A DNA stretch of 64,000 bases from Octopus sinensis. Its lineage: Eukaryota. This document shows positions 3,666-60,565 of the stretch, in pieces; positions within the stretch are counted from its first letter, which is position 1, and each line of letters opens with the position of its first letter. The stretch lies in assembly GCF_006345805.1 (NCBI RefSeq), contig NC_043014.1:18972001-19036000 (forward strand). Direction: 5' to 3'. The notes below the pieces were generated by a model, which saw only the letters and a program-made list of their open reading frames with translations, did no database searches and was not told the DNA's origin. The position numbers and the translations under genes were made by a program.

Positions 3666-4728
3666 CAAATGGTGCGGTGAATATATTGTCGTCTAAGGCG
3701 GCGACCTGCCTAAAACGTTAGCACACCGGGAGAAATCATTCGTGGTATTTCGTCTGTCTTTACGTCCTGAGTTCAAATTCTGCCGAGGTCGACTTCGCTT
3801 TTCATCCTTTCAGGGTGGATAAATTAAGTACCAGTTGCGTACTTGGGTTGATCTTATCGACTGGCCCCTCCCCCAAAATTTCGGGCCTTGTGCCTAGAGT
3901 AGAAAAGAATATATTGTCTAAATTACGCAAAATGACAATAACACTGACATCTAATTTTAACTGATATATTTACCAAAATTACATTAAGATATCTTGAAAT
4001 ACTGAAGAGTATATATATTCAATAAAATCACCATTGGCTTCAACCATGTCGCCCAGATAAATTCGAAGTCTGCAACTCTTCTTGTCAGTCTCCTTGTTTA
4101 AGTTGGTAAAAGCTGCCATAACACTTGCTTTCAGTTCATCTTTGGTGTTACAAGGAGTTTTGTTGGTTTCTCGATCAACTGCGCCCCACACATAATAATC
4201 AAGGGAATTGCAGTCTGGTGAGTTGGTTAGGTGGCCAGCTGTTAGGGGTGGTGTAGTCGCAGAAATTGCCTGACAGCCACGACTGGGTTCTCATGTTTGT
4301 GTGACATAGGGTTTTCCAGCAGTTACCATCTTGAGACAGGGCAACAATAGCTCCTCCGGGCATGTGTTGAGTGTGACGCCGTGTGGAAGATGAATGGAGG
4401 CATAACGTCGCCATCACTAGCAATCATTCCAAATACCACGATGTTGACAGAATCTTTGACTTTTATCACACTTAGTTCATGCACTGACCTCAGATTTACA
4501 CCCAAACACTCTGAAATATTTCTGTTGGAGCTTCCGGCGCGAATGCCAAGTAGTACCATATGTCATTTCCAAATTTCTGGCAGACTGAATTAAGTCATAG
4601 TGCTGTCATTCTCACAGACGGTGCCTTGCTAACCCTACTGCACTGTGTTGTCATAAAAATCAAAAACGAACAATGCACATCCGCGAAATAAAAACTAAAA
4701 ATGGCTACAATTTATCCATCGCAATCTG
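3666..4728 (-). mobile_element. Internally deleted Tc1/mariner-superfamily transposon (maT/DD37D-like), transposase pseudogene
   Basis: Minus-strand peptides VNIVVFGMIASDGDVMPPFIF, WPPN/SPDCNSLDYYVWGAVDRETNK...ELKASVMAAF (frameshifted); degenerate TIRs ggtgcggtgaatatattgtc (3671-3690) and acaatttatccatcgcaatctg (4707-4728). Confidence 0.8.
3695..3906 (+). mobile_element. SINE family A, full length, with target-site duplication
   Basis: tRNA-like head with B box gagttcaaattc, central gaggtcgacttcgcttttcatcctttc...aagtacca block; 12-bp direct repeat gaatatattgtc at 3679-3690 and 3907-3918. Confidence 0.9.
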
Positions 4729-9861: not shown

Positions 9862-12800
9862 AAGATATATAGATAGATATACATAGATACATATACATAC
9901 ATGCATAACTATATTTCTTGTTAACCTAATAAGTGGTGCACCGTAACAGAATTTTCGACACGTGAAACATAACAATCTACTTCAAATCGCTATTAGGTCA
10001 TCGTATGTAGAGTCATGATAGGTGAGTTTGTACTGGCACCGAGTCGTTTGAATAGCAATAATGAAATCAAATCAAATAGCGATATTTTGAAATCTTTTAA
10101 TACGTTCGTTTTAGGTTTACGTAATATATGACAGCAAATTCCTCCATTACGTTTAAGTAATTTAAAATTCAAGGAAATTAATTAAAAAATTTCAATATTT
10201 ATGTAGTCAGAGAAGTAAATTAGCTACTAAGTCAGGAGAATCGAGAGAAAGACAGGAAACACAAAGAGAAAGAGAAAGAGAGAGAGGGGGAGAAAGGAAG
10301 AAAAGGAGAGAAGGAAGTGTAAAATGAAATTCTAGGGATATGAAGAAATGATGTCCAAGGGACTTTTTAAATTCGTACATCAATTCCTTCCTATTTTAAA
10401 TCGTTTTGTCTGAGAAAAGTTTACATAATGTATGCATTTCTCATTATATATTACACAAAACAGAAACGTACGTATTAAATTAGTTCCTCAATATTTGGTT
10501 GGCTTCATTATTACAGCCTATACATGTGTGTGTTTGTGTGTGTGTGTGTGTGTGTTTGTGTGTGTGTGTCTGTGTGTGCGTGTCTCTAAGTTTATACTTG
10601 ACAACTTTCCGTATTTCATTCACAAATCATTGGTCTCGGCCTAAGTTGTTCGTTTATTTATTATTTTTTTTTTTAAGAAAAGCACCAGCTGAAACTTGCC
10701 GTGTAGTACGGTGTAGACCGATATCACATTATAGCGAAGCGAGCTAGTTAACACCACAACCATGCCTGCCTCCTGGTTGATAAATCCTCTTTCAAAATCA
10801 CTCAATGAAGAACGATATATTTGCTGTTTGTAAGCTACACGGACTTTTCAATCAATGTAGAAATTCTGCCATTATTCGGTTCGATTAATAATAGTGTTCT
10901 ATTTTCAGTATGAGAAAAAATAACAAAATATGAATATACATATACATCATAAAAAATGTATAGTTTTGTGTATGTATATTATTTTTACAGATTATTCCTA
11001 AGAGGTCTTTTACACTTTCTGATTCGAGATTGTTATTGTTTTTGTTTTGTTTATTGTTTTCGTATATTTTTACAATAACACCCATTCCCCGACTTTAATT
11101 GCATTTTTCTTAAAGAACAGAAAATTCGATATTAAATACATATACTTAGAGATGTACAATTACACGCCTTCCATAACACATATAGACACGTATGTTACTG
11201 AGTAAACACACACATACGCACACATACACATACGCGCGTGCATATGTATAAATATATATATATATATATATATATAATGCATATATGTATGTGTGCGTTT
11301 GAAAATTCATATACATATACACGTACATACAGAGATATATGCATAGCCAGTTATTTATATATAAATATGTGTATACACACACACACACATATATATAATG
11401 TGTATAAATATAAATATATATACTTATATATACATATACACTTACTTATATACACGCACAAATAAGCACATATACATAAATATATATACACAGGTATAAA
11501 CACACACGTACATATGTACGTATGTATATTTGTATCTACCTAACTATCCATCTATCTATCTATCTATCTGTCTATATATATATATATGTATATGTATATA
11601 TATATACATATATATATATATACATATATATATATACACATATATATATACATACATATACATATATGTATGTATATATATACACCTATATATATATACA
11701 CATATACGTATATACATACATACATATACATACCTACATATATATATATATATACATACATATATGATACATGTATATGTGCGTGTTTGGATAAGTGTGT
11801 ACGTATATTGGTGCGCATATATAGATATTATAATGTGTAAGTGTATGTCTGTGTAAGCCTGTTCTTGGTAACGTGTTTGTATTTTTGGAAAGTATTCAAA
11901 ACACTAGCCAGGCAGCAATAAAAACTTTCTAATATATAATAAAAGAAGTAAAAAATACACCCACACTTCATAAATAATAGTTATTGTTCATGTTTGTATT
12001 ATGTCTTATATATATTTTATTTGTTGTTTTCGTGTGTTTTATGTTCTTGTATTTGTGGCTATGTTATTTGTAATAGTTGTATTCCTCTGAGAATCATACA
12101 ATTAAACTGGCTGTAATCAAAATATTTTTTACGCTGTTGGTGTTCCATACTTACTAAGACGTTTGCGCCATGTTTTAGTTTGTTTCAAATTTATTTCGTT
12201 TATTTTACATTATATCGTTTTATTGTATTTTTATATATAATTTTTCTTGTTGTTTAGAATTTAGTTTGGATTGGAACAAAGGCGATTAAATTACTTAGGG
12301 AGGAGGGCGTGAATGTTTAACTACGTATTTCTGATTGCTCTTTATTTGGTGGATTTGCTGAATCGATCGAGCATCGGTCTCAGAACGTATATATAGCCGT
12401 AACAAATTACTATCATTTAGTAATTTAAGGCTGTTTACGTCCTGAGTTCGAACCCTACCGAATTCAACATCGCTTTGCGTCTTTCCTGGGTCAATAAAAT
12501 AAAATACTGATGCGATTTTATTTAATAATAGTATAAAACAGCCGAAAAATTAAGGAAATTATCATAGAGAACAAGATTTGACAAGTCACACACGAGTTCG
12601 TCATTGGTGGAGCAATAAGTTTATGATGAGAATAGATACTATAAACCATTTAATACAGCGCCCTGCAGAGACTACACCTCCATCAACTTATAAATGGTCA
12701 ATAATAAGAATCGACCTGTTAAATATAGCAACCAAATTACCCTAAGACTTTAACCTATTTAGTGAGAGAGAGTTTGTGTAATATACTCTTAGAAAATGGC

Positions 12801-13494
12801 AGAGACATAGACGGGCGAGTCAAGGGTAGATTTACATGGAAGCCTACTTTATCAAGCCTGGCCTGGAGCTAAACAAGAACTGCAACGTCAGCAAAAGCAA
12901 CTATCAACAATACAATGGTACAACGGTCATGAAACATGCAGAACCCGTATCCCGTAGAATATGAGATATAATCGTACAATGTTTAGTTTCTGTAGATTAC
13001 TGATTCTAGATCTAAATAATTGGAACACGTAGAATATTGCGAAATCAGTCGTGTTCTTAGTAAATTTTGAAACAGAAAGTGTACCTATTTTTACCTTAGA
13101 TTTTAAAATTTTAGTTTAAGAGCTTAGAAAATCCTGCTTCAAAACAGTATTCAGATATGCAATATAATAATTTTCCATAAGTTTAATTTTCTTTTTTAAC
13201 TTTGAGCTTTTTTCGTATTTTGAGCTTTTTTCCATATTGAAGGAGCCAGAAGTTTCTGGTCCGGCTTGAAGTTTAGAAGATTGAGAAATTTTGTGCTGTA
13301 AGTATTGTAAGCCAAATTAACTGACAAACAAAAAAATAAATTGTACATTTCTCATCAGTGAATTCAACATTTGTTTAACAATGGTGATGGTCATAATCAC
13401 TTGCTTATGATTACACACACAAACACACACACACACACACACACAAACACACACATACCTAAATAATAAAAATAATGATATATATATATATATA

Positions 13495-15163
13495 TATAAT
13501 TTCAACAATTGAGGGTAAAATTAATTAATTAATCAATTTCACCAAGTATTCAGTATGCAAAGGGACCATTTAAGGCGAATTCAAATTATTACATTATATA
13601 AAAGGGCTTAGTAAAATAAATTACTTTGCCGCATACTGAACTCATTAGAAATAGCAGCTAAAAAAACTTTTTTAAAACTATTTCTAATACTTAAAGAAAA
13701 CCTCTCTCATATAGTGTTTGCTCAACTCAACTCACGAAAGTATGGGGGTAGAGACATTAAAAAATCAAATGCAAAGGTTATTTGAGAACGTACGTTTCAA
13801 GATTAGTCAAACTCGACACTTCTATCATCAGCTCAGAACTCCCTGGTTTGGATTTGAAAACACTGAAAGTGGGAGCATACCCTTTCGGCTTCTTATCGCT
13901 TCTGAAGATCTGCTCGAAACTAACAGTGCCAGCAAACTCAAATATGCAAGCGAAGAATTTCTGCTCTCCCCTTTCCACCAGCGTGGGTTAAAATCAGTAA
14001 ACACTATGCTTTTTTCGGTAAAATCCGAGGCATTAAATAGAGAGAGATGAATTATAATTTCAACAATTGAGGGTAAAATTAATTAATTAATCAATTTCAC
14101 CAAGTATTCAGTATGCAAAGCGACCATTTAAGGCGAATTCAAATTATTGCATTATATAAAAGGGCTTAGTAAAATAAATTACTTTGCCGCATACTGAACT
14201 CATTAGAAATAGCAGCTAAAAAAACTTTTTTAAAACTATTTCTAATACTTAAAGAAAACCTCTCTCATATAGTGTTTGCTCAACTCAACTCACGAAAGTA
14301 TGGGGGTAGAGACATTAAAAAATCAAATGCAAAGGTTTTTGAGAACGTACGTTTCAAGATTAGTCAAACTCGACACTTCTATCATCAGCTCAGAACTCCC
14401 TGGTTTGGATTTGAAAACACTGAAAGTGGGAGCATACCCTTTCGGCTTCTTATCGCTTCTGAAGATCTGCTCGAAACTAACAGTGCCAGCAAACACAAAT
14501 ATGCAAGCGAAGAATTTCTGCTCTCCCCTTTCCACCAGCGTGGGTTAAAATCAGTAAACACTATGCTTTTTTCGGTAAAATCCGAGGCATTAAATAGAGA
14601 GAGATGAATTATAATTTCAACAATTGAGGGTAAGATTAATTAATTAATCAATTTCACCAAGTATTCAGTATGCAAAGGGACCATTTAAGGCGAATTCAAA
14701 TTATTACATTATATAAAAGGGCTTAGTAAAATAAATTACTTTGCCGCATACTGAACTCATTAGAAATAGCAGCTAAAAAAACTTTTTTAAAACTATTTCT
14801 AATACTTAAAGAAAACCTCTCTCATATAGTGTTTGCTCAACTCAACTCACGAAAGTATGGGGGTAGAGACATTAAAAAATCAAATGCAAAGGTTATTTGA
14901 GAACGTACGTTTCAAGATTAGTCAAACTCGACACTTCTATCATCAGCTCAGAAGCCCTGGTTTGGATTTGAAAACACTGAAAGTGGGAGCATACCCTTTC
15001 GGCTTCTTATCGCTTCTGAAGATCTGCTCGAAACTAACAGTGCCAGCAAACTCAAATATGCAAGCGAAGAATTTCTGCTCTCCCCTTTCCACCAGCGTGG
15101 GTTAAAATCAGTAAACACTATGCTTTTTTCGGTAAAATCCGAGGCATTAAATAGAGAGAGATG
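13495..15163 (-). mobile_element. Three tandem copies of a 558-bp Penelope pLTR/retrozyme-like unit
   Basis: Marker caacaattgaggg starts at 13503, 14061 and 14618 (periods 558 and 557); copies differ by only a few substitutions or 1-nt indels; each has a minus-strand hammerhead motif; (TA)n on the left. Confidence 0.85.
13777..13839 (-). ncRNA. Type I hammerhead ribozyme motif (copy 1; repeated in copies 2 and 3)
   Basis: Minus strand tgag-CUGAUGA-stem II-GAAAC-guac-GUU-cuca; TCATCAG at 13825-13831. Confidence 0.6.
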
Positions 15164-15500
15164 GCACTGTTAGTTTCGAGTAGATCTTCAGAAGCGATAA
15201 GAAGCCGAAAGGGTATGCTCCCACTTTCAGTGTTTTCAAATCCAAACCAGGGAGTTCTGAGCTGATGATAGAAGTGTCGAGTTTGACTAATCTTGAAACG
15301 TACGTTCTCAAATAACCTTTGCATTTGATTTTTTAATGTCTCTACCCCCATACTTTCGTGAGTTGAGTTGAGCAAACACTATATGAGAGAGGTTTTCTTT
15401 AAGTATTAGAAATAGTTTTAAAAAAGTTTTTTTAGCTGCTATTTCTAATGAGTTCAGTATGCGGCAAAGTAATTTATTTTACTAAGCCCTTTTATATAAT
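15162..15500 (+). mobile_element. Inverted partial copy (339 bp) of the 558-bp unit
   Basis: tggcactgttagtttcgag...aagcccttttatataat is the reverse complement of the unit interior; TG microhomology at 15162-15163; runs into (TA)n. Confidence 0.9.
15254..15317 (+). ncRNA. Type I hammerhead ribozyme motif in the inverted copy
   Basis: CTGATGA 15262-15268, GAAAC 15295-15299, palindromic stem III ACGTACGT, GTT triplet 15304-15306, stem I tgag/ctca extended by gtt/aac; the first stem II position is a U-U mismatch. Confidence 0.6.
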
Positions 15501-15526
15501 ATATATATATATATATATACATATAT

Positions 15527-15716
15527 AAAGTTAGGGAATGGAGGAGATAAAATCCAGGTTACATGTTTCATACCTAGCGGAACATCAGAAGTAGTCAATT
15601 ACCCAAACGAGCGGTAGACCGCAAGCTACTCTTCAGGCAAAGGATACTTTAATCATATGAAGTTTACGTTGTCATTAGGAGATTCCGTAATAACTCGTAG
15701 GAATTTCGATCGAAAT
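15527..15716 (-). mobile_element. TA-embedded hammerhead-bearing pLTR-like repeat (family H2), copy 1
   Basis: Homologous to 30676-30875; minus-strand CUGAAGA (15630-15636), stem II guagcuugcgg/ccgcuagguau, GAAACAUGUA; stem I is mutated. Confidence 0.7.
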
Positions 15717-15822
15717 ATATATATACTATTTCAGACACCTTGATTCGGCTCCATGCAACTTAATGTTTCGCGTTCCTCTAACAGAAGCTCATCTCTTTCA
15801 GTTTTAGATTAAATATATAAGT

Positions 15823-16052
15823 GAAGGGGCGTGCTCAGTGATTAGGGGTATTCGGCTCACTATCGAAAGGTCATGAGTTCAACACCCAGTGGCATGCTTT
15901 TTACCTGTACAGGACACTTTGTTTCACGTTGCTCCAGCCCACTCAGCCGGCAAATATGAGTAGTTCCTGTATTTCAAAGGGCCAGCCGTGTCATATTTTG
16001 TGAGAATTACGTTAATGTTACGCATGCTGTGGAGTACTCAACCTCTTGCACT
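15823..16052 (+). mobile_element. tRNA-derived SINE family D, degraded
   Basis: A-box-like gtgctcagtgatt, B-box-like gagttcaacacc, then cactttgtttcacgttgctccagcccactcagc shared with family C. Confidence 0.6.
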
Positions 16053-16069
16053 TGGTCGACCGGACGTTA

Positions 16070-16170
16070 TGGTCGATGATATTTGCCCAAGATACCACGC
16101 AGTGGGACTGATCCCAGAACCATATGGTCGTGAAGGAAACTTCTTACTACCCATCCATGCCTGCGCCCAA
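16070..16170 (-). mobile_element. SINE family B head fragment
   Basis: tgcccaagataccacgcagtgggactga...gaaccat matches the family B head in reverse. Confidence 0.65.
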
Positions 16171-16791
16171 CCTGAAAAAGCTTTAGATCTGTTGTTGATT
16201 TTGGCCACGGTTCAATAACTGAAGCATGTAAAAGAATAAATACCTGTTTATTTTCGAAGTCAGATTCCGCCGAATGTCAATATATTCTTACTTCACTAAC
16301 GGTACGAGAGTCACCATCAACGCTCCACCATTACTACTAACACTCAATAGTTATCACAACCACCGCCACAAATACCGCCGCCATCACTGCTAGTCCCCAT
16401 CACGAACACGTCAACTCTAAACCATCCCACCTATTCAGTCTCTTATCATTTATCACCCAAGTCCAATTAAATAGAAGACACTTATTGACTTCCGCTCCAT
16501 CGAACTATCGACTGGACCACCTTGTAGAATTTATTCATTTAATTATTTTTAAACTGGTGGATCACAATCTCTTCCTTCTTTCCATTCTTTCTTTCTTTCT
16601 TTCTTCCCTTCTTTCTTTCTTTCTTTCTTTCTTCTTTTCTCTCTCTGTCTATCTCTCACACTCTCTCTCAGTCTATTCCTCACAACACAAACAGACACAC
16701 AGACACAGACACCCCCCCCCACACACACACACGTCGCAACTACACACAAGATATAAAAATATATATACATTTATAGACATACATGTATGTA

Positions 16792-17016
16792 TTGGCTTGT
16801 CCAGAAAGTTCGTGCCGATTTTTAAAGGAAAGAAAAAGGTCAATAAATACTTGCCGTTACATATTTAATCAACTAAATATGAAACATTTTGTTGCACAAT
16901 GCGTCTCCATCTTTCCTCTAACTTGAAAATACCCTTTTCCCAGAACTGTGGTGCATGGGAGGGTAAGTCGAAAGGTAAGCCACTATAAATCGGCACGAAC
17001 TTTCCGGACAACCCAA
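16792..17016 (-). mobile_element. Mariner MITE (225 bp)
   Basis: TIRs ttggcttgtccagaaagttcgtgccgattt / aaatcggcacgaactttccggacaacccaa with TA on both sides; the minus strand encodes a mariner C-terminus QFWEKGIFKLEERWRRIVQQNVSYLVD*. Confidence 0.9.
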
Positions 17017-29993: not shown

Positions 29994-30675
29994 ATATATT
30001 TACATATATATATATATTATATGTATAAATATAATTGTACATATGTCCTTGTATTTGTGTGTATAAATTCAACAGAATGCATGCATTGAGACGCGCGCGT
30101 GCAAATACACTCGATTGTGCATGGATGCGTTTTGTAATTGTCCGGAGTTAATTAAATGATATGACAGTATAAACAAGTAGATCTTCATATCATCATATTT
30201 AAATATTACATTTAAACGTTGAATAAGCATAGATATACGTTTATCTATATATATCTATCTAACTATCTATGTATCTATCTATCTATCTATTTATCTTCCT
30301 ATCTAACTATCTCTAGATGTATATATTTTGTGTCTGTATCTGTGTACATGTTAGCCTGTGTATGAGATAGCATAATTATTTTATACATGTGTATAAATAT
30401 GTATAGAGACAGAAACATAATATCATATGACGTATAGATTTATTGTGAAGCAAAATTCCACGAGTGACAGTATTAACAATAAATAGCAGGAGAAATGTTA
30501 TCCAGCGACGTAAATTACATGGATGTATATTCAGTCTTCGATGTCTGAAAAGACAGGCTTTGGAATGTATTTCTTCGTTCCACATAAATTTATCAGGAAG
30601 CATGCTTTCAGCTGATTTCCACAATGAAGCACCCTTACAACAATTCGTTTTAGTGATATATATATATATATGTAT

Positions 30676-30875
30676 GAGGAATGGAGTAGATAAAATTCAG
30701 GCTACCTATGTTTCATAGCTAGTGGAACCTCGGAAATAGTAAATTATCCAAACGAGGGGTAGACCGCAAGATACTCTTCAGGCCAAGGATACTTTAATTA
30801 TATGGAGTTTACATTGTTGTTAAGCGATCCCGTTAAACTCATTCGATCGAAGTTCATTGAAAACGACTAGTACTC
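30676..30875 (-). mobile_element. Family H2 hammerhead-bearing repeat, copy 2
   Basis: Homologous to 15527-15716; preceded by (TA)n. Confidence 0.75.
30698..30786 (-). ncRNA. Type I hammerhead motif with a long stem II
   Basis: Minus strand ggc-CUGAAGA-(gua...ccucg...cgagg...uau)-GAAAC-auag-GUA-gcc; TCTTCAG at 30775-30781. Confidence 0.65.
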
Positions 30876-57592: not shown

Positions 57593-58064
57593 TTAAATTC
57601 TGCAGTTTTATTCGGGTAGTCCTTCACTCAACTCCATCGGCACATAATATGAAATAAGACATACATTTTAGGGTCTGACGACATAATTAATAGGTTGCTT
57701 TCTACATCAGGGCCACGTCATTCGAAATTTCAGTGAAGGTACTCGGCTTGGGTTGGTGAGATAACATTAGCTGTGTTGGTAAATCGAGACTCGTTGCAGA
57801 ATGATACTTCTCCGCGAAGCAGAGATCAAAGCACTTTGACGCCTTCTAACATGTCTATGGCTTCATTCACACTGGCATGAGATTTAGGTTGCTTCCCTGT
57901 ATATGTATGCAAGTACACAAACATATAGGTATACAAGCACGCGCGCGCACACACAACACCACCACACATATAAACAGGTATATATATATATATATATATA
58001 TATGATTATATATATACATATATATATATGTGTATATATATCTGTATGATTATATATATATGTA

Positions 58065-58928
58065 CGTGATCTGATCAATAAGTATCCGGATTTTTTCCAT
58101 AGTAGCAAAGCTAAAGGATGTAGAATAAAGCAACTTGGCACAAATTGACCATGAACTCTGCTGTGCATGCACACTAAGGTTTAACAGTCTAGCTCACTTC
58201 CGCTCTTTACAGTAGTGCTTGGAAGGAAGGTGTGTAGCGTGTGATCGCTGCATTGACCATGACAATGGAAGATGAACAGAGAATCTGCATCAAATTTTGC
58301 CAAAAGCTTGGCAATACCTGATCACAGACCTACGCAAAGTTTTCAAAAATTTTTCATTATTCTAGACGCAGTCAAGGAGATCTTGCACAACTGAAACCCG
58401 AGCGTCTCTTTGGTTAGCTGAAAGTAGTTTTAGTACCCAAATCTCCAGTACTAATGCACTGAACTGAACCGTAACTAATCTGTACACCCTCTGATAACTC
58501 ATGGATGGTGATTCGTGGATTTTCCTCATAGCTGTGTGTACATTTGCGATATATTTCTCAGTTCTGCTTGTTGCAGGTCTCCAAGAACGTTCGTCAATAT
58601 TGACATTTTTTCGGCCACCTAAGACACAAATGAACTACTCATACACTTGTGTGTGGCTCATACACTCCTCTGCATTTTCTGTAACTTTGCGTAGGCCTCT
58701 GAGCACGTATCGCCATGACAACTTATTCTGTCATGGTCAATGCGACGTTCACACCCTACACAACTTCCTTCCAAGCACTGCAGTAAACAACGGAAGTGAG
58801 CTAGGACGTTAAAACTTAGTATGCATGCACAGCAGAGTTGCAGGTCAATCTGTGCTAAGCGGCTTTACTCTGCGTATTTTAGCTTTCTTACTATGGCAAT
58901 AGTCCGGATGCTTATTGATCAGACCTCG
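58065..58928. mobile_element. Non-autonomous mariner element built from two inward-facing 5' ends
   Basis: TIRs cgtgatctgatcaataagtatccgga / tccggatgcttattgatcagacctcg with TA flanks; plus arm encodes MTMEDEQRICIKFCQKLGNT*, minus arm encodes MSHTQVYE*F...DERSWRPATSRTE.../RITIHELSEGVQISYGSVQCI. Confidence 0.85.
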
Positions 58929-59424
58929 TATATACATATATATATATATATATATGCACTAACATTCCACATTTTATTATTGTGGAAAAAAATGGAGGAT
59001 CAAAATAAACCAATTAGCCAAATTACAAAAGGAGAAAACAGATCAACAAAAGAATTCTGGTGATATAAGATGATATAACACAGAATGGTTAAAAAAATAC
59101 GAAGTAACCTAAACAATGAAGACAATATGTAGTGAATAATTTAGTATGTGACATGTAAGCCAGAATTTAGGTTATTATTCTCCGATGATACAGTTACGCA
59201 CAGAAACACACACTCAGCCACACACACATATATATACATACATGCGCATATGTGTGTGTGTGTGTACATATGTGTGTGAGCGTTGATTTAATGTGTGTAT
59301 GAGTAATATATACCAAATATAGTTTAAATCAATAAAAGAATTTGTGAATATGCATATATAAACACGAGCATACGCATGCACCTTCCTACACTCGCATGTA
59401 CACACACACGCGCCCACATTTATA

Positions 59425-60565
59425 TAAGGGTAATTCAAAATGTAACCCCACTTTCGCCAAAACCTTCCTTAGGTTGGCCGTACTGCTTCCAGCGATCGCA
59501 TGCTAAAATGTGCTTCTCTTATGTTAGCTTAAACGTGGTTTGATTCTGATCGAAGCAGTTTTCTTGTTTTTTTGGGGGGGTTCTTTTTTTTGTGTGTGTT
59601 ACCGAGTAAACATTGCCGCTCTGCTCTCAGTGTGTAACGAGGGGGAAGACAGATCAGTGAACCGATTTCTATGGTGACTAAGGAGATGAAATTATCACAG
59701 GATTTCAGTACAATACGAGAACACCGTTCTACCGCGTAGTACTAAGCATGAGTGTAATGAGAAGCTTAACAATGACCGGATGAGTGAGAAGGACGAACAG
59801 CGAGCAGAACGCTCGTCAACTTCTGCCTCTGGCGTAAAAATTCAATAAGTTCGAGATTAACCACCAACTAGTAGACATGTTCTCTCTGCAAATTATTTAT
59901 AATACTGCATACGAAGTCATCTATGACAAGCTTTGCTTCTGTGAAGTCTGTGGGTAATGAGTGCCAAGCGAGCTTTCCGGAGCGCATAAGTACAATTGAG
60001 TTGAGATCTGTCAATGCTTACACGGCCGCTGCATCGATGAAGGTGAAGCTTATTTTGAAGAGAATAGTTGTAGAATATGAGATATGGGCCCATCACATTC
60101 AGCCAGAATCTAAAAGGCATAGTATCGAGTGGAAACACATGGAATGGCCAGTGGAAAATAAATTCAAGGAAAAAATTCAACCGTCCGCAGAAAACATAAT
60201 GCAGCCTGTTTTGGAGATGGAAAAAGCCTATAATGGAACATTAGCTGGAAAAGGCGTCTACACTCACCAATGCATGCGACAATGAAATACTGGCCAAAGA
60301 ACTAAATCCAGCCTTTCGTAGCAAACGCAGACGTGTATTGTGAAATCAAGTATTAGTTTTCCACGACAATGTATTCCCGCCTACAGCCGCCTACACCGTT
60401 GAAACCATTGGAAAACTAGGCTATTAGTTGCTGGCATACAGGCCGAATTTTGCCTTTTCTATCTAACACCTCTTTGGACGACTCAGACTTTTTTTACAAT
60501 GTTGTCGATTTACTGCGGACGAAGAAGCGTAGGAATTGATGAACAAATGGTTGCGCGACGACCTC
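59425..60565 (+). mobile_element. Degenerate mariner transposon (DD34D-type transposase pseudogene)
   Basis: LKRIVVEYEIWAHHIQPESKRHSIEWKH...QPSA, LVFHDNV, YRPNFAFSI*HLFGRL correspond to IVTGDETW, HDNA and YSPDLAPSDFHLFGPL; many stops; right TIR not seen. Confidence 0.85.

Follow-up and report, generated by a model that had tools for sequence, protein, structure and literature searches.

Hundreds of young (TA)n insertions of a 558-bp hammerhead-bearing repeat in Octopus sinensis point to a non-LTR retrozyme probably copied by a Penelope-like enzyme

The window analysed here, the whole 64,000-nucleotide stretch of Octopus sinensis DNA, contains an array (13495-15163) of three head-to-tail units of 558, 557 and 554 bp that are 99% identical, each pair differing on alignment by 2-5 substitutions and 1-2 gap columns (Table 1). 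The units adjoin one another directly, which fits the absence of an LTR structure, and they lie between two (TA)n runs, as the initial annotation of this DNA had described. An inverted copy overlaps the end of this long arm by 2 nt and differs from unit 1 by 2 substitutions on alignment; its presence had been recognized earlier, but the length then given, 339 bp, becomes 342 bp by alignment, because the shorter figure omits the 2-nt junction overlap and the TA-ambiguous end. The array was also correctly said to contain no reverse transcriptase (RT) ORF. The longest ATG frames of the unit encode 18 aa on the strand that carries the hammerhead motif and 102 aa on the opposite strand, and a Pfam search with the stop-to-stop form of the opposite-strand frame (111 aa) returned no match; we rejected this frame as an endonuclease remnant.

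Table 1. Array, ribozyme motifs and flanking runs, in window coordinates
Feature	Position	Strand	Remarks
(TA)n run, left	13478..13499	.	likely target; overlaps outer 3′ end of long arm
Unit 1, 558 bp	13495..14052	-	3′ end = outer start site, unit position about 554-558
Conserved 3′ region, unit positions 366-558	13495..13687	-	both start sites inside; recurs in every unit
Type I hammerhead, unit 1	13783..13835	-	stem I UGAG/CUCA; core 13831-13825; GAAA 13798-13795
Unit 2, 557 bp	14053..14609	-	
Hammerhead motif, unit 2	14340..14392	-	
Unit 3, 554 bp, unit positions 4-558 (first 3 nt absent)	14610..15163	-	5′ end of long arm
Hammerhead motif, unit 3	14898..14950	-	
Inverted arm, 342 bp, unit positions 122-463	15162..15503	+	terminates at inner start site
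Hammerhead motif, inverted arm	15258..15310	+	predicted cut after 15306
(TA)n run, right	15500..15527	.	likely target

Other repeats accompany the array in the window. On its right side it is adjoined by a second repeat (15527-15720, minus strand), of which an 82%-identical copy lies at about 30670-30850; this repeat carries a minus-strand CUGAAGA ... GAAAC sequence with no obvious type I stem I, and could be a further element with a ribozyme, sharing the (TA)n run with the array. Elsewhere (58038-58955, 59875-60285 and 3979-4290) we observed a 227-nt inverted-arm element and two frames, which we take to resemble Tc1/mariner transposase fragments.

All four copies in the window, the units on the minus strand and the inverted arm on the plus strand, carry the sequence UGAG-CUGAUGA-stem II-GAAAC-GUAC-GUU-CUCA, bearing out the earlier proposal of a hammerhead in each copy; the cut predicted for the inverted arm also agrees with the position previously given. 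In unit 1, the motif has a U·U at the base of stem II and a 2-bp stem III with a palindromic tetraloop, and cleavage is predicted between 13787 and 13786. An Rfam scan of 12000-17000 (E<=1) reported no hammerhead, and the identification of the motif therefore rests on its pattern and on comparison rather than on an Rfam score. A possible second hammerhead, on the opposite strand at 13902, was rejected on inspection, as stem I is missing and the base at the cleavage position is a non-cleavable G.

An exact 32-mer from the ribozyme has 447 matches in the 2.72-Gb genome and its control has none, and a looser hammerhead pattern that includes relatives matches 3,754 times versus once for the reversed control, demonstrating that the motif does not occur by chance. 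Searching the same genome with the unit gave 1,362 first-look candidates, of which the best 40 contained 165 matches, mostly 96-100% identical. Arrays reside on many chromosomes and the unit is also present in public runs from 6 studies, which argues against the possibility, named in the initial annotation, that the window array is a local assembly artefact. No RNA run is on record among the public runs containing the unit; contigs from runs guessed to be RNA cover the unit in fragments, some continuing into (TA)n, and are uninformative regarding circles. The window array thus belongs to a young non-coding repeat of 558 bases, designated family A, with hundreds of insertions scattered through the genome. 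Literature searches listed no paper on cephalopod retrozymes, and the words hammerhead, retrozyme and ribozyme are all absent from the main text of a published annotation of octopus repeats (PMC13282606); the repeat library of that study, or the supplements of the papers, may contain the unit.

Family A has several relatives in the genome. Subfamily B (546 bp, about 85% identical to A, 832 exact matches) is very young and forms long arrays, of 15 or more units, despite a U4C change in its core, which is accompanied by a compensatory change in stem I (e.g., L008:3355-3420). Family C (569 bp; loci L217 and L322; 172 matches for one motif) has the same two 3′ ends as A, and families D and E are represented by diverged arrays. 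Family F (L163:2615-2875, L232-L255; ~2,475 candidates) consists of short, older, mostly inverted copies sharing the conserved 3′ region of the unit, and no hammerhead was seen in the pieces examined. A different non-coding, two-armed family with a Hydra-like hammerhead (L168:6760-7460, L250, L277, L296) was also observed, whose tail has two short motifs in common with the 3′ end of the 558-bp unit.

Comparison of nine related sequences reveals that the core and the stem III pairs are kept and that the ribozyme varies at N7, at U4, at the base of cleavage and in the 10.1-11.1 pair. The core (CUGANGA / GAAA / NUH, with three helices) is intact in family A, where H is U. The cleavage base is U in families A, B and E and A in C and D, U4 is C in B, and the 10.1-11.1 pair, for which family A lacks a Watson-Crick combination, is U·U in A and B, G·U in D, A·A in E and A-U in C. 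The family C hammerhead, with CUGACGA, A-U at 10.1-11.1, a 3-bp stem III and GUA, is fully canonical. Among these nine sequences, 90% of helix cells are paired versus 32-42% in slid controls, and two pairs with changes on both sides still pair; as the covariation score for so few sequences was equalled by 76 of 500 shuffles, the evidence for the ribozyme is the pattern of conservation and not significant covariation. Conservation of the core among genomic copies, on which the initial annotation had made its reading depend, holds in diverged relatives, down to roughly 75-80% identity as judged by eye from the alignment.

The GUU triplet is slower than GUC or GUA. Together with the U·U, it makes up the weaker features of the family A ribozyme, and both features, previously flagged as suboptimal, are indeed present. 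Folding predictions give -10.4 kcal/mol for the stem III self-duplex and only -3.3 for stem II, and the family A hammerhead is predicted to be weak, working best as a dimer through its palindromic stem III. The axolotl HHR_Amex2, which resembles family A in having a 2-bp helix III with a tetraloop and a U·U at the base of helix II, provides an active precedent for the U·U, with 22% cleavage as a monomer and better cleavage as a dimer (PMC7229834; here and below, this source, PMC4209133, PMC8557442, PMC11167929 and bioRxiv 10.64898/2026.07.22.740005 are cited from excerpts). Among nine predicted retrozyme dimers from Xenopus, one cleaved and eight did not (bioRxiv 10.64898/2026.07.22.740005). 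The U4C change results in considerably lower activity in vitro, yet allows viroid infectivity (PMC3088659).

We mapped 80 family A loci, comprising the 40 best-scoring and 40 taken by position order, and found 49 inverted, 27 single-armed and 4 complex insertions; with the complex loci left out, the anatomy counts cover 76 loci and 125 arms. The 3′ ends of 123 of these arms enter (TA)n, meaning that at least 5 TA follow within 20 nt, and they occur at two sites about 95 nt apart, an outer site at unit position about 554-558 and an inner site at about 458-470. Inverted loci combine an outer with an inner end in 42 of 49 cases, two inner ends in 2 and one other end in 5, and never two outer ends, for which our own arithmetic gives an expectation of about 11 under independence. 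The same outer and inner combination is found at 24 of 27 inverted loci of subfamily B. The 5′ ends, by contrast with these fixed 3′ ends, are spread over the entire unit. We counted 216 arm passages across the predicted cut site but just 5 arm ends within 10 nt of it, with 4.7 expected; 5′ ends do not accumulate at the site of cleavage, which argues that cut linear RNA is not the main template.

Both 3′ end sites reside within the conserved 3′ 190 nt of the unit, which have 76% and 89% invariant columns among five relatives; for the first 210 nt, the corresponding values are 47-49%. Judging from this sequence comparison, the conserved 3′ region is likely to be recognized by the RT. In a folding prediction, the outer and inner sites meet at the base of one AT-rich helix. 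The paired ends, inverted truncated arms and microsatellite target represent a Penelope-like footprint, and its components (an inverted 5′-truncated arm, a tail at one end and a microsatellite target) were all found in the survey of 80 loci. The earlier suggestion of a non-autonomous element copied by a Penelope RT is accordingly supported by the (TA)n targets, the paired fixed 3′ ends, the variable 5′ ends and the inverted arms, as well as by conservation of the ribozyme core in diverged relatives. Classical twin priming, in which the outer arm halts at the inner primer, was considered and set aside: outer-arm 5′ ends at unit positions 420-510 are not reproducibly enriched, with 11 of 28 in the first 40 loci (p=0.003), which are query-biased, versus 3 of 18 in the 40 listed by position (p=0.58). 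Nor are the junction phases of the two arms correlated (7 of 49 within 20 nt, 4.3 expected, p=0.13).

The nature of the template was examined by classing substitutions away from gaps in 76 loci. Within arrays, full family A units diverge by 0.93% over 353 pairs (0.82% where the units compared lie in opposite arms), and between arrays by 2.0%; 35 haplotypes are found in 38 arrays. Variants that are private and fixed or nearly fixed number 11 and occur in 9 of the 45 arrays with at least threefold coverage, and both arms carry every one of the 15 checkable private or rare fixed variants; the window array itself has one variant fixed in all four copies, common to one other locus. The presence of array-fixed private mutations in both arms implies that new mutations often pass through a one-unit bottleneck and are then repeated, as copying around a monomer circle predicts. 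From these patterns, the template was probably one unit and probably circular. The circular monomer is predicted to adopt a stable fold (z = -5.2 on 25 shuffles).

One array, L076, tells a different story. Its arms have in common four unit-specific variants (two pairs), in register from the 3′ ends and not from the centre. This implies a template with several non-identical units whose two readings began at the same final unit, which a monomer circle cannot supply. The circular-RNA step put forward in the initial annotation is therefore favoured by the array-fixed private mutations, while the L076 array points to a linear multi-unit template. Mirrored minor variants number 7, in 4 of 80 inverted arrays, versus 183 present in only one of two same-rank units; the three arrays with such variants other than L076 are all weak cases, and cross-arm sharing in aggregate is in register in 4 of 9 arrays where a rough count of our own gives about 3 expected, leaving L076 as the only strong case. 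Minor variants also occur twice within one arm (33 cases in 68 arms), mostly at a spacing of 1 or 4 units, and the four-unit recurrence in the long arrays L045 and L090 suggests block duplication or multi-unit templates. Such repetition within arms indicates local duplication or multi-unit templates, with homogenisation at the DNA level also acting. Strict multi-unit circles were rejected, as repeats in L300 and L315 break the period, and so was read-through inheritance across arrays, for which 85 units yielded no unit pair with two common non-fixed variants. Within-array divergence in family A is six times that in family B (0.93% versus 0.15%) in the same assembly, indicating that most family A singletons are real and that read-through should pass them on. 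We read the templates as mostly monomers and sometimes multimers.

An ORF for RT and GIY-YIG attached to the unit, for which the initial annotation had proposed a genome search, was found at none of the 80 family A loci, and at none of 20 loci of relatives does the unit continue into coding sequence. The arrangement expected of an autonomous Penelope-like element, an RT and GIY-YIG ORF between pLTRs, is likewise absent from all 80 loci. RT/EN fragments in the flanks of some loci stand apart from the array, as judged from coordinates and sequence ends. Penelope-like elements do coexist in the genome, including young Neptune-type elements (775-781 aa, RT and GIY-YIG) and young Hydra-clade elements (778-960 aa), and both types end in (TA)n. 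A 947-aa Hydra-clade protein carries RWK, DKT, CxCx5C, CxxC and CxH, the motifs that define this clade (PMC8557442). The resident Hydra elements have a hammerhead with a palindromic tetraloop on a 2-bp stem III and a G·U at the base of stem II, and the inner end of their inverted copies lies about 118 nt before the outer end. By ribozyme build and end pairing, the young Hydra-clade elements appear to match the unit more closely than the Neptune-type elements do and are the best candidates for the partner, with young (TA)n-targeting Neptune-type elements as the alternative.

A sequence link to a partner was not found in the Neptune-type families, the Hydra-clade families or family F. The best matches of the unit to 30 Hydra-clade loci (about six families) are separate insertions or have E>=0.03, and 45 GIY-YIG loci from the Neptune search gave no convincing match beyond separate insertions. 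A motif derived from a public run is absent from this genome and gave no partner link, and a GGU..ACC hairpin in common with Hydra tails is unsupported by folding. The Hydra-clade loci (L266, L272, L279, L280, L285) represent several young families with frames of 778-960 aa that Pfam does not recognize, and the family with the 778-aa frame has a CCGAAGA (U4C) hammerhead core. The 781-aa Neptune-type family (L166:1674-3113, L170, L183) has a U3-A8 variant hammerhead and an upstream frame of 470-479 aa that overlaps the RT frame in another phase, for which Pfam gave no informative match.

Judged at the level of sequence, the 558-bp family has the features that define animal non-LTR retrozymes and appears to work like a non-autonomous Penelope-like element. 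Those retrozymes (PMC7229834; bioRxiv 10.64898/2026.07.22.740005) resemble the unit in consisting of non-coding tandem units of less than 50% GC, each with one type I hammerhead, in having a stable predicted circle and in sharing a genome with Penelope-like elements. At 558 nt, the unit falls within the 51-972 bp range of a 2026 survey (bioRxiv 10.64898/2026.07.22.740005); it exceeds the 220-390 nt of the retrozyme circles that have been tested, and it has a GUU triplet. The excerpted parts of these two sources do not mention strict (TA)n targeting, two paired fixed 3′ ends or head-to-head arms in retrozymes.

Several Penelope-like systems provide parallels for the insertion anatomy. Hydra-clade elements share (TA)n insertion, a terminal-repeat hammerhead, an inverted 5′-truncated arm and an optional tail at one end (PMC8557442), whereas the unit has neither an ORF nor a detectable sequence match to the Hydra repeats examined; the tail is about 95 nt in the unit, about 118 nt in a resident Hydra family and 30-40 bp in published Hydra elements (PMC8557442). 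The Poseidon element PAc of Anolis is similar in having two internal RT start sites that set the tail and an AT-rich target, and in vitro both target strands are cut and extended and ribozyme cleavage is dispensable for insertion (PMC11167929). PAc differs in being autonomous and, in the portion of the study cited here, in having no start-site difference between strands in vitro (PMC11167929), whereas the arms of the unit use different sites at 42 of 49 inverted loci and never combine two outer ends. Chlamys non-autonomous elements such as MRC1 (PMC8557442) are, like the unit, non-coding, multicopy in head-to-tail arrangement and Penelope-like-driven. Their 3′ end resembles that of their partner and their clade is without canonical hammerheads according to the excerpted text (PMC8557442), whereas the unit has a hammerhead and a 3′ match to a partner was not found.

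We consider the array to be an insertion of a non-LTR retrozyme that was delivered into (TA)n by an RT-endonuclease borrowed from a Penelope-like element, probably a Hydra-clade one, with a one-unit circle as the probable template in most cases, and assign this reading a probability of roughly 60%. An existing array would be transcribed into a multi-unit RNA, in which weak hammerheads would cut part of the time, with monomers ligated into circles and some multimers left uncut. The putative enzyme would then cut both (TA)n strands and prime two cDNAs, the first from the outer site and the second from the inner site, which lies about 95 nt upstream, in keeping with the paired fixed ends. As the observed anatomy indicates, the RT would run a variable distance, through as many as 13 or more units and straight past the ribozyme site, after which the two cDNAs would be joined head to head or one alone would be kept. 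Copying around a single monomer would leave all units with the same private mutations, the pattern seen, whereas a minority of insertions would be copied from an uncut multimer and some arrays would later duplicate units locally. We advance a more specific version only tentatively: a dimeric Penelope-like enzyme would carry out rolling-circle reverse transcription of the ribozyme-made circle from two fixed start sites per RNA, and the canonical ribozyme (GUA, A-U and a 3-bp stem III in C) would have been traded for weakened ones (GUU and U·U in A; also U4C in B) because partial cutting keeps both circles and multimers copyable. A related idea, that a weaker ribozyme gives longer arrays, was weighed on two measures that disagree: by our own counts over the first 100 listed matches of each, B has about 2.6 matches per locus versus 2.1 for A, and the median insertion length of C, about 1.0 kb at 17 loci, is not below the 887 bp of A at 48 loci.

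Mobilisation by a Penelope-like enzyme could instead always involve an uncut linear read-through multimer, with the ribozyme vestigial or serving in trimming and unequal exchange at the DNA level homogenising the arrays. The in-register sharing of unit-specific variants between the arms of L076 and the duplications within arms are what such templates would leave behind, the ribozymes of A and B look weakened, arm ends do not pile up at the cut site, unprocessed RNA is the main substrate in vitro (PMC11167929), and local amplification has been proposed (bioRxiv 10.64898/2026.07.22.740005). Heterogeneity is rarely inherited, however, as the 7 mirrored variants in 4 of 80 inverted arrays compared with 183 one-sided ones attest; nearly every array has its own fixed haplotype in both arms; the real singletons implied by 0.93% divergence in A versus 0.15% in B should have been passed on; and relatives keep the ribozyme core, which in family C is canonical. 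We therefore regard an exclusively read-through template as rather doubtful. That the unit is instead the pLTR of a so far unfound autonomous Penelope-like element, the arrays being its truncated products, seems improbable. Penelope-like pLTRs do carry type I hammerheads and occur as truncated, inverted copies (PMC4209133, PMC8557442), and the family was sampled in part, by genome searches that score best candidates only. Against this, none of the 80 family A loci or 20 relatives' loci runs into coding sequence, the RT/EN fragments in some flanks are separate from the array, units follow one another directly 13 or more times, and the 45 GIY-YIG and 30 Hydra-clade loci offer no convincing match other than separate insertions. 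An ordinary satellite, DNA-transposon-like repeat or assembly artefact with a chance hammerhead-like string might be proposed given the many 1-nt indels of the assembly and the lack of an Rfam hammerhead in 12000-17000. This account is very hard to sustain and is largely refuted by the hundreds of loci whose 3′ ends are fixed and whose 5′ ends are ragged, by the pattern count of 3,754 against 1 in the control, by conservation of the core alongside divergence in the 5′ part of the unit, and by the occurrence of the unit in public runs of 6 studies.

The retrozyme class was already known, and what is new here is a family together with two refinements, mixed templates and weakened ribozymes. Circle-templated copying by Penelope-like enzymes has been proposed (PMC4209133, PMC7229834) and is supported by pLTR homology in Xenopus (bioRxiv 10.64898/2026.07.22.740005); Penelope-like copying of retrozyme circles, proposed since 2014-2020, is not shown in the excerpted parts of these three sources. 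The 558-bp family offers a test system for such copying, with young copies, two mapped start sites and candidate intact partners in the same genome. Its mutation patterns separate one-unit from multi-unit templates, and its ribozymes show a natural gradation, canonical in family C and weakened in A and B. That two different start sites are so strictly paired may also explain the one-end tails and inverted arms of Penelope-like insertions.
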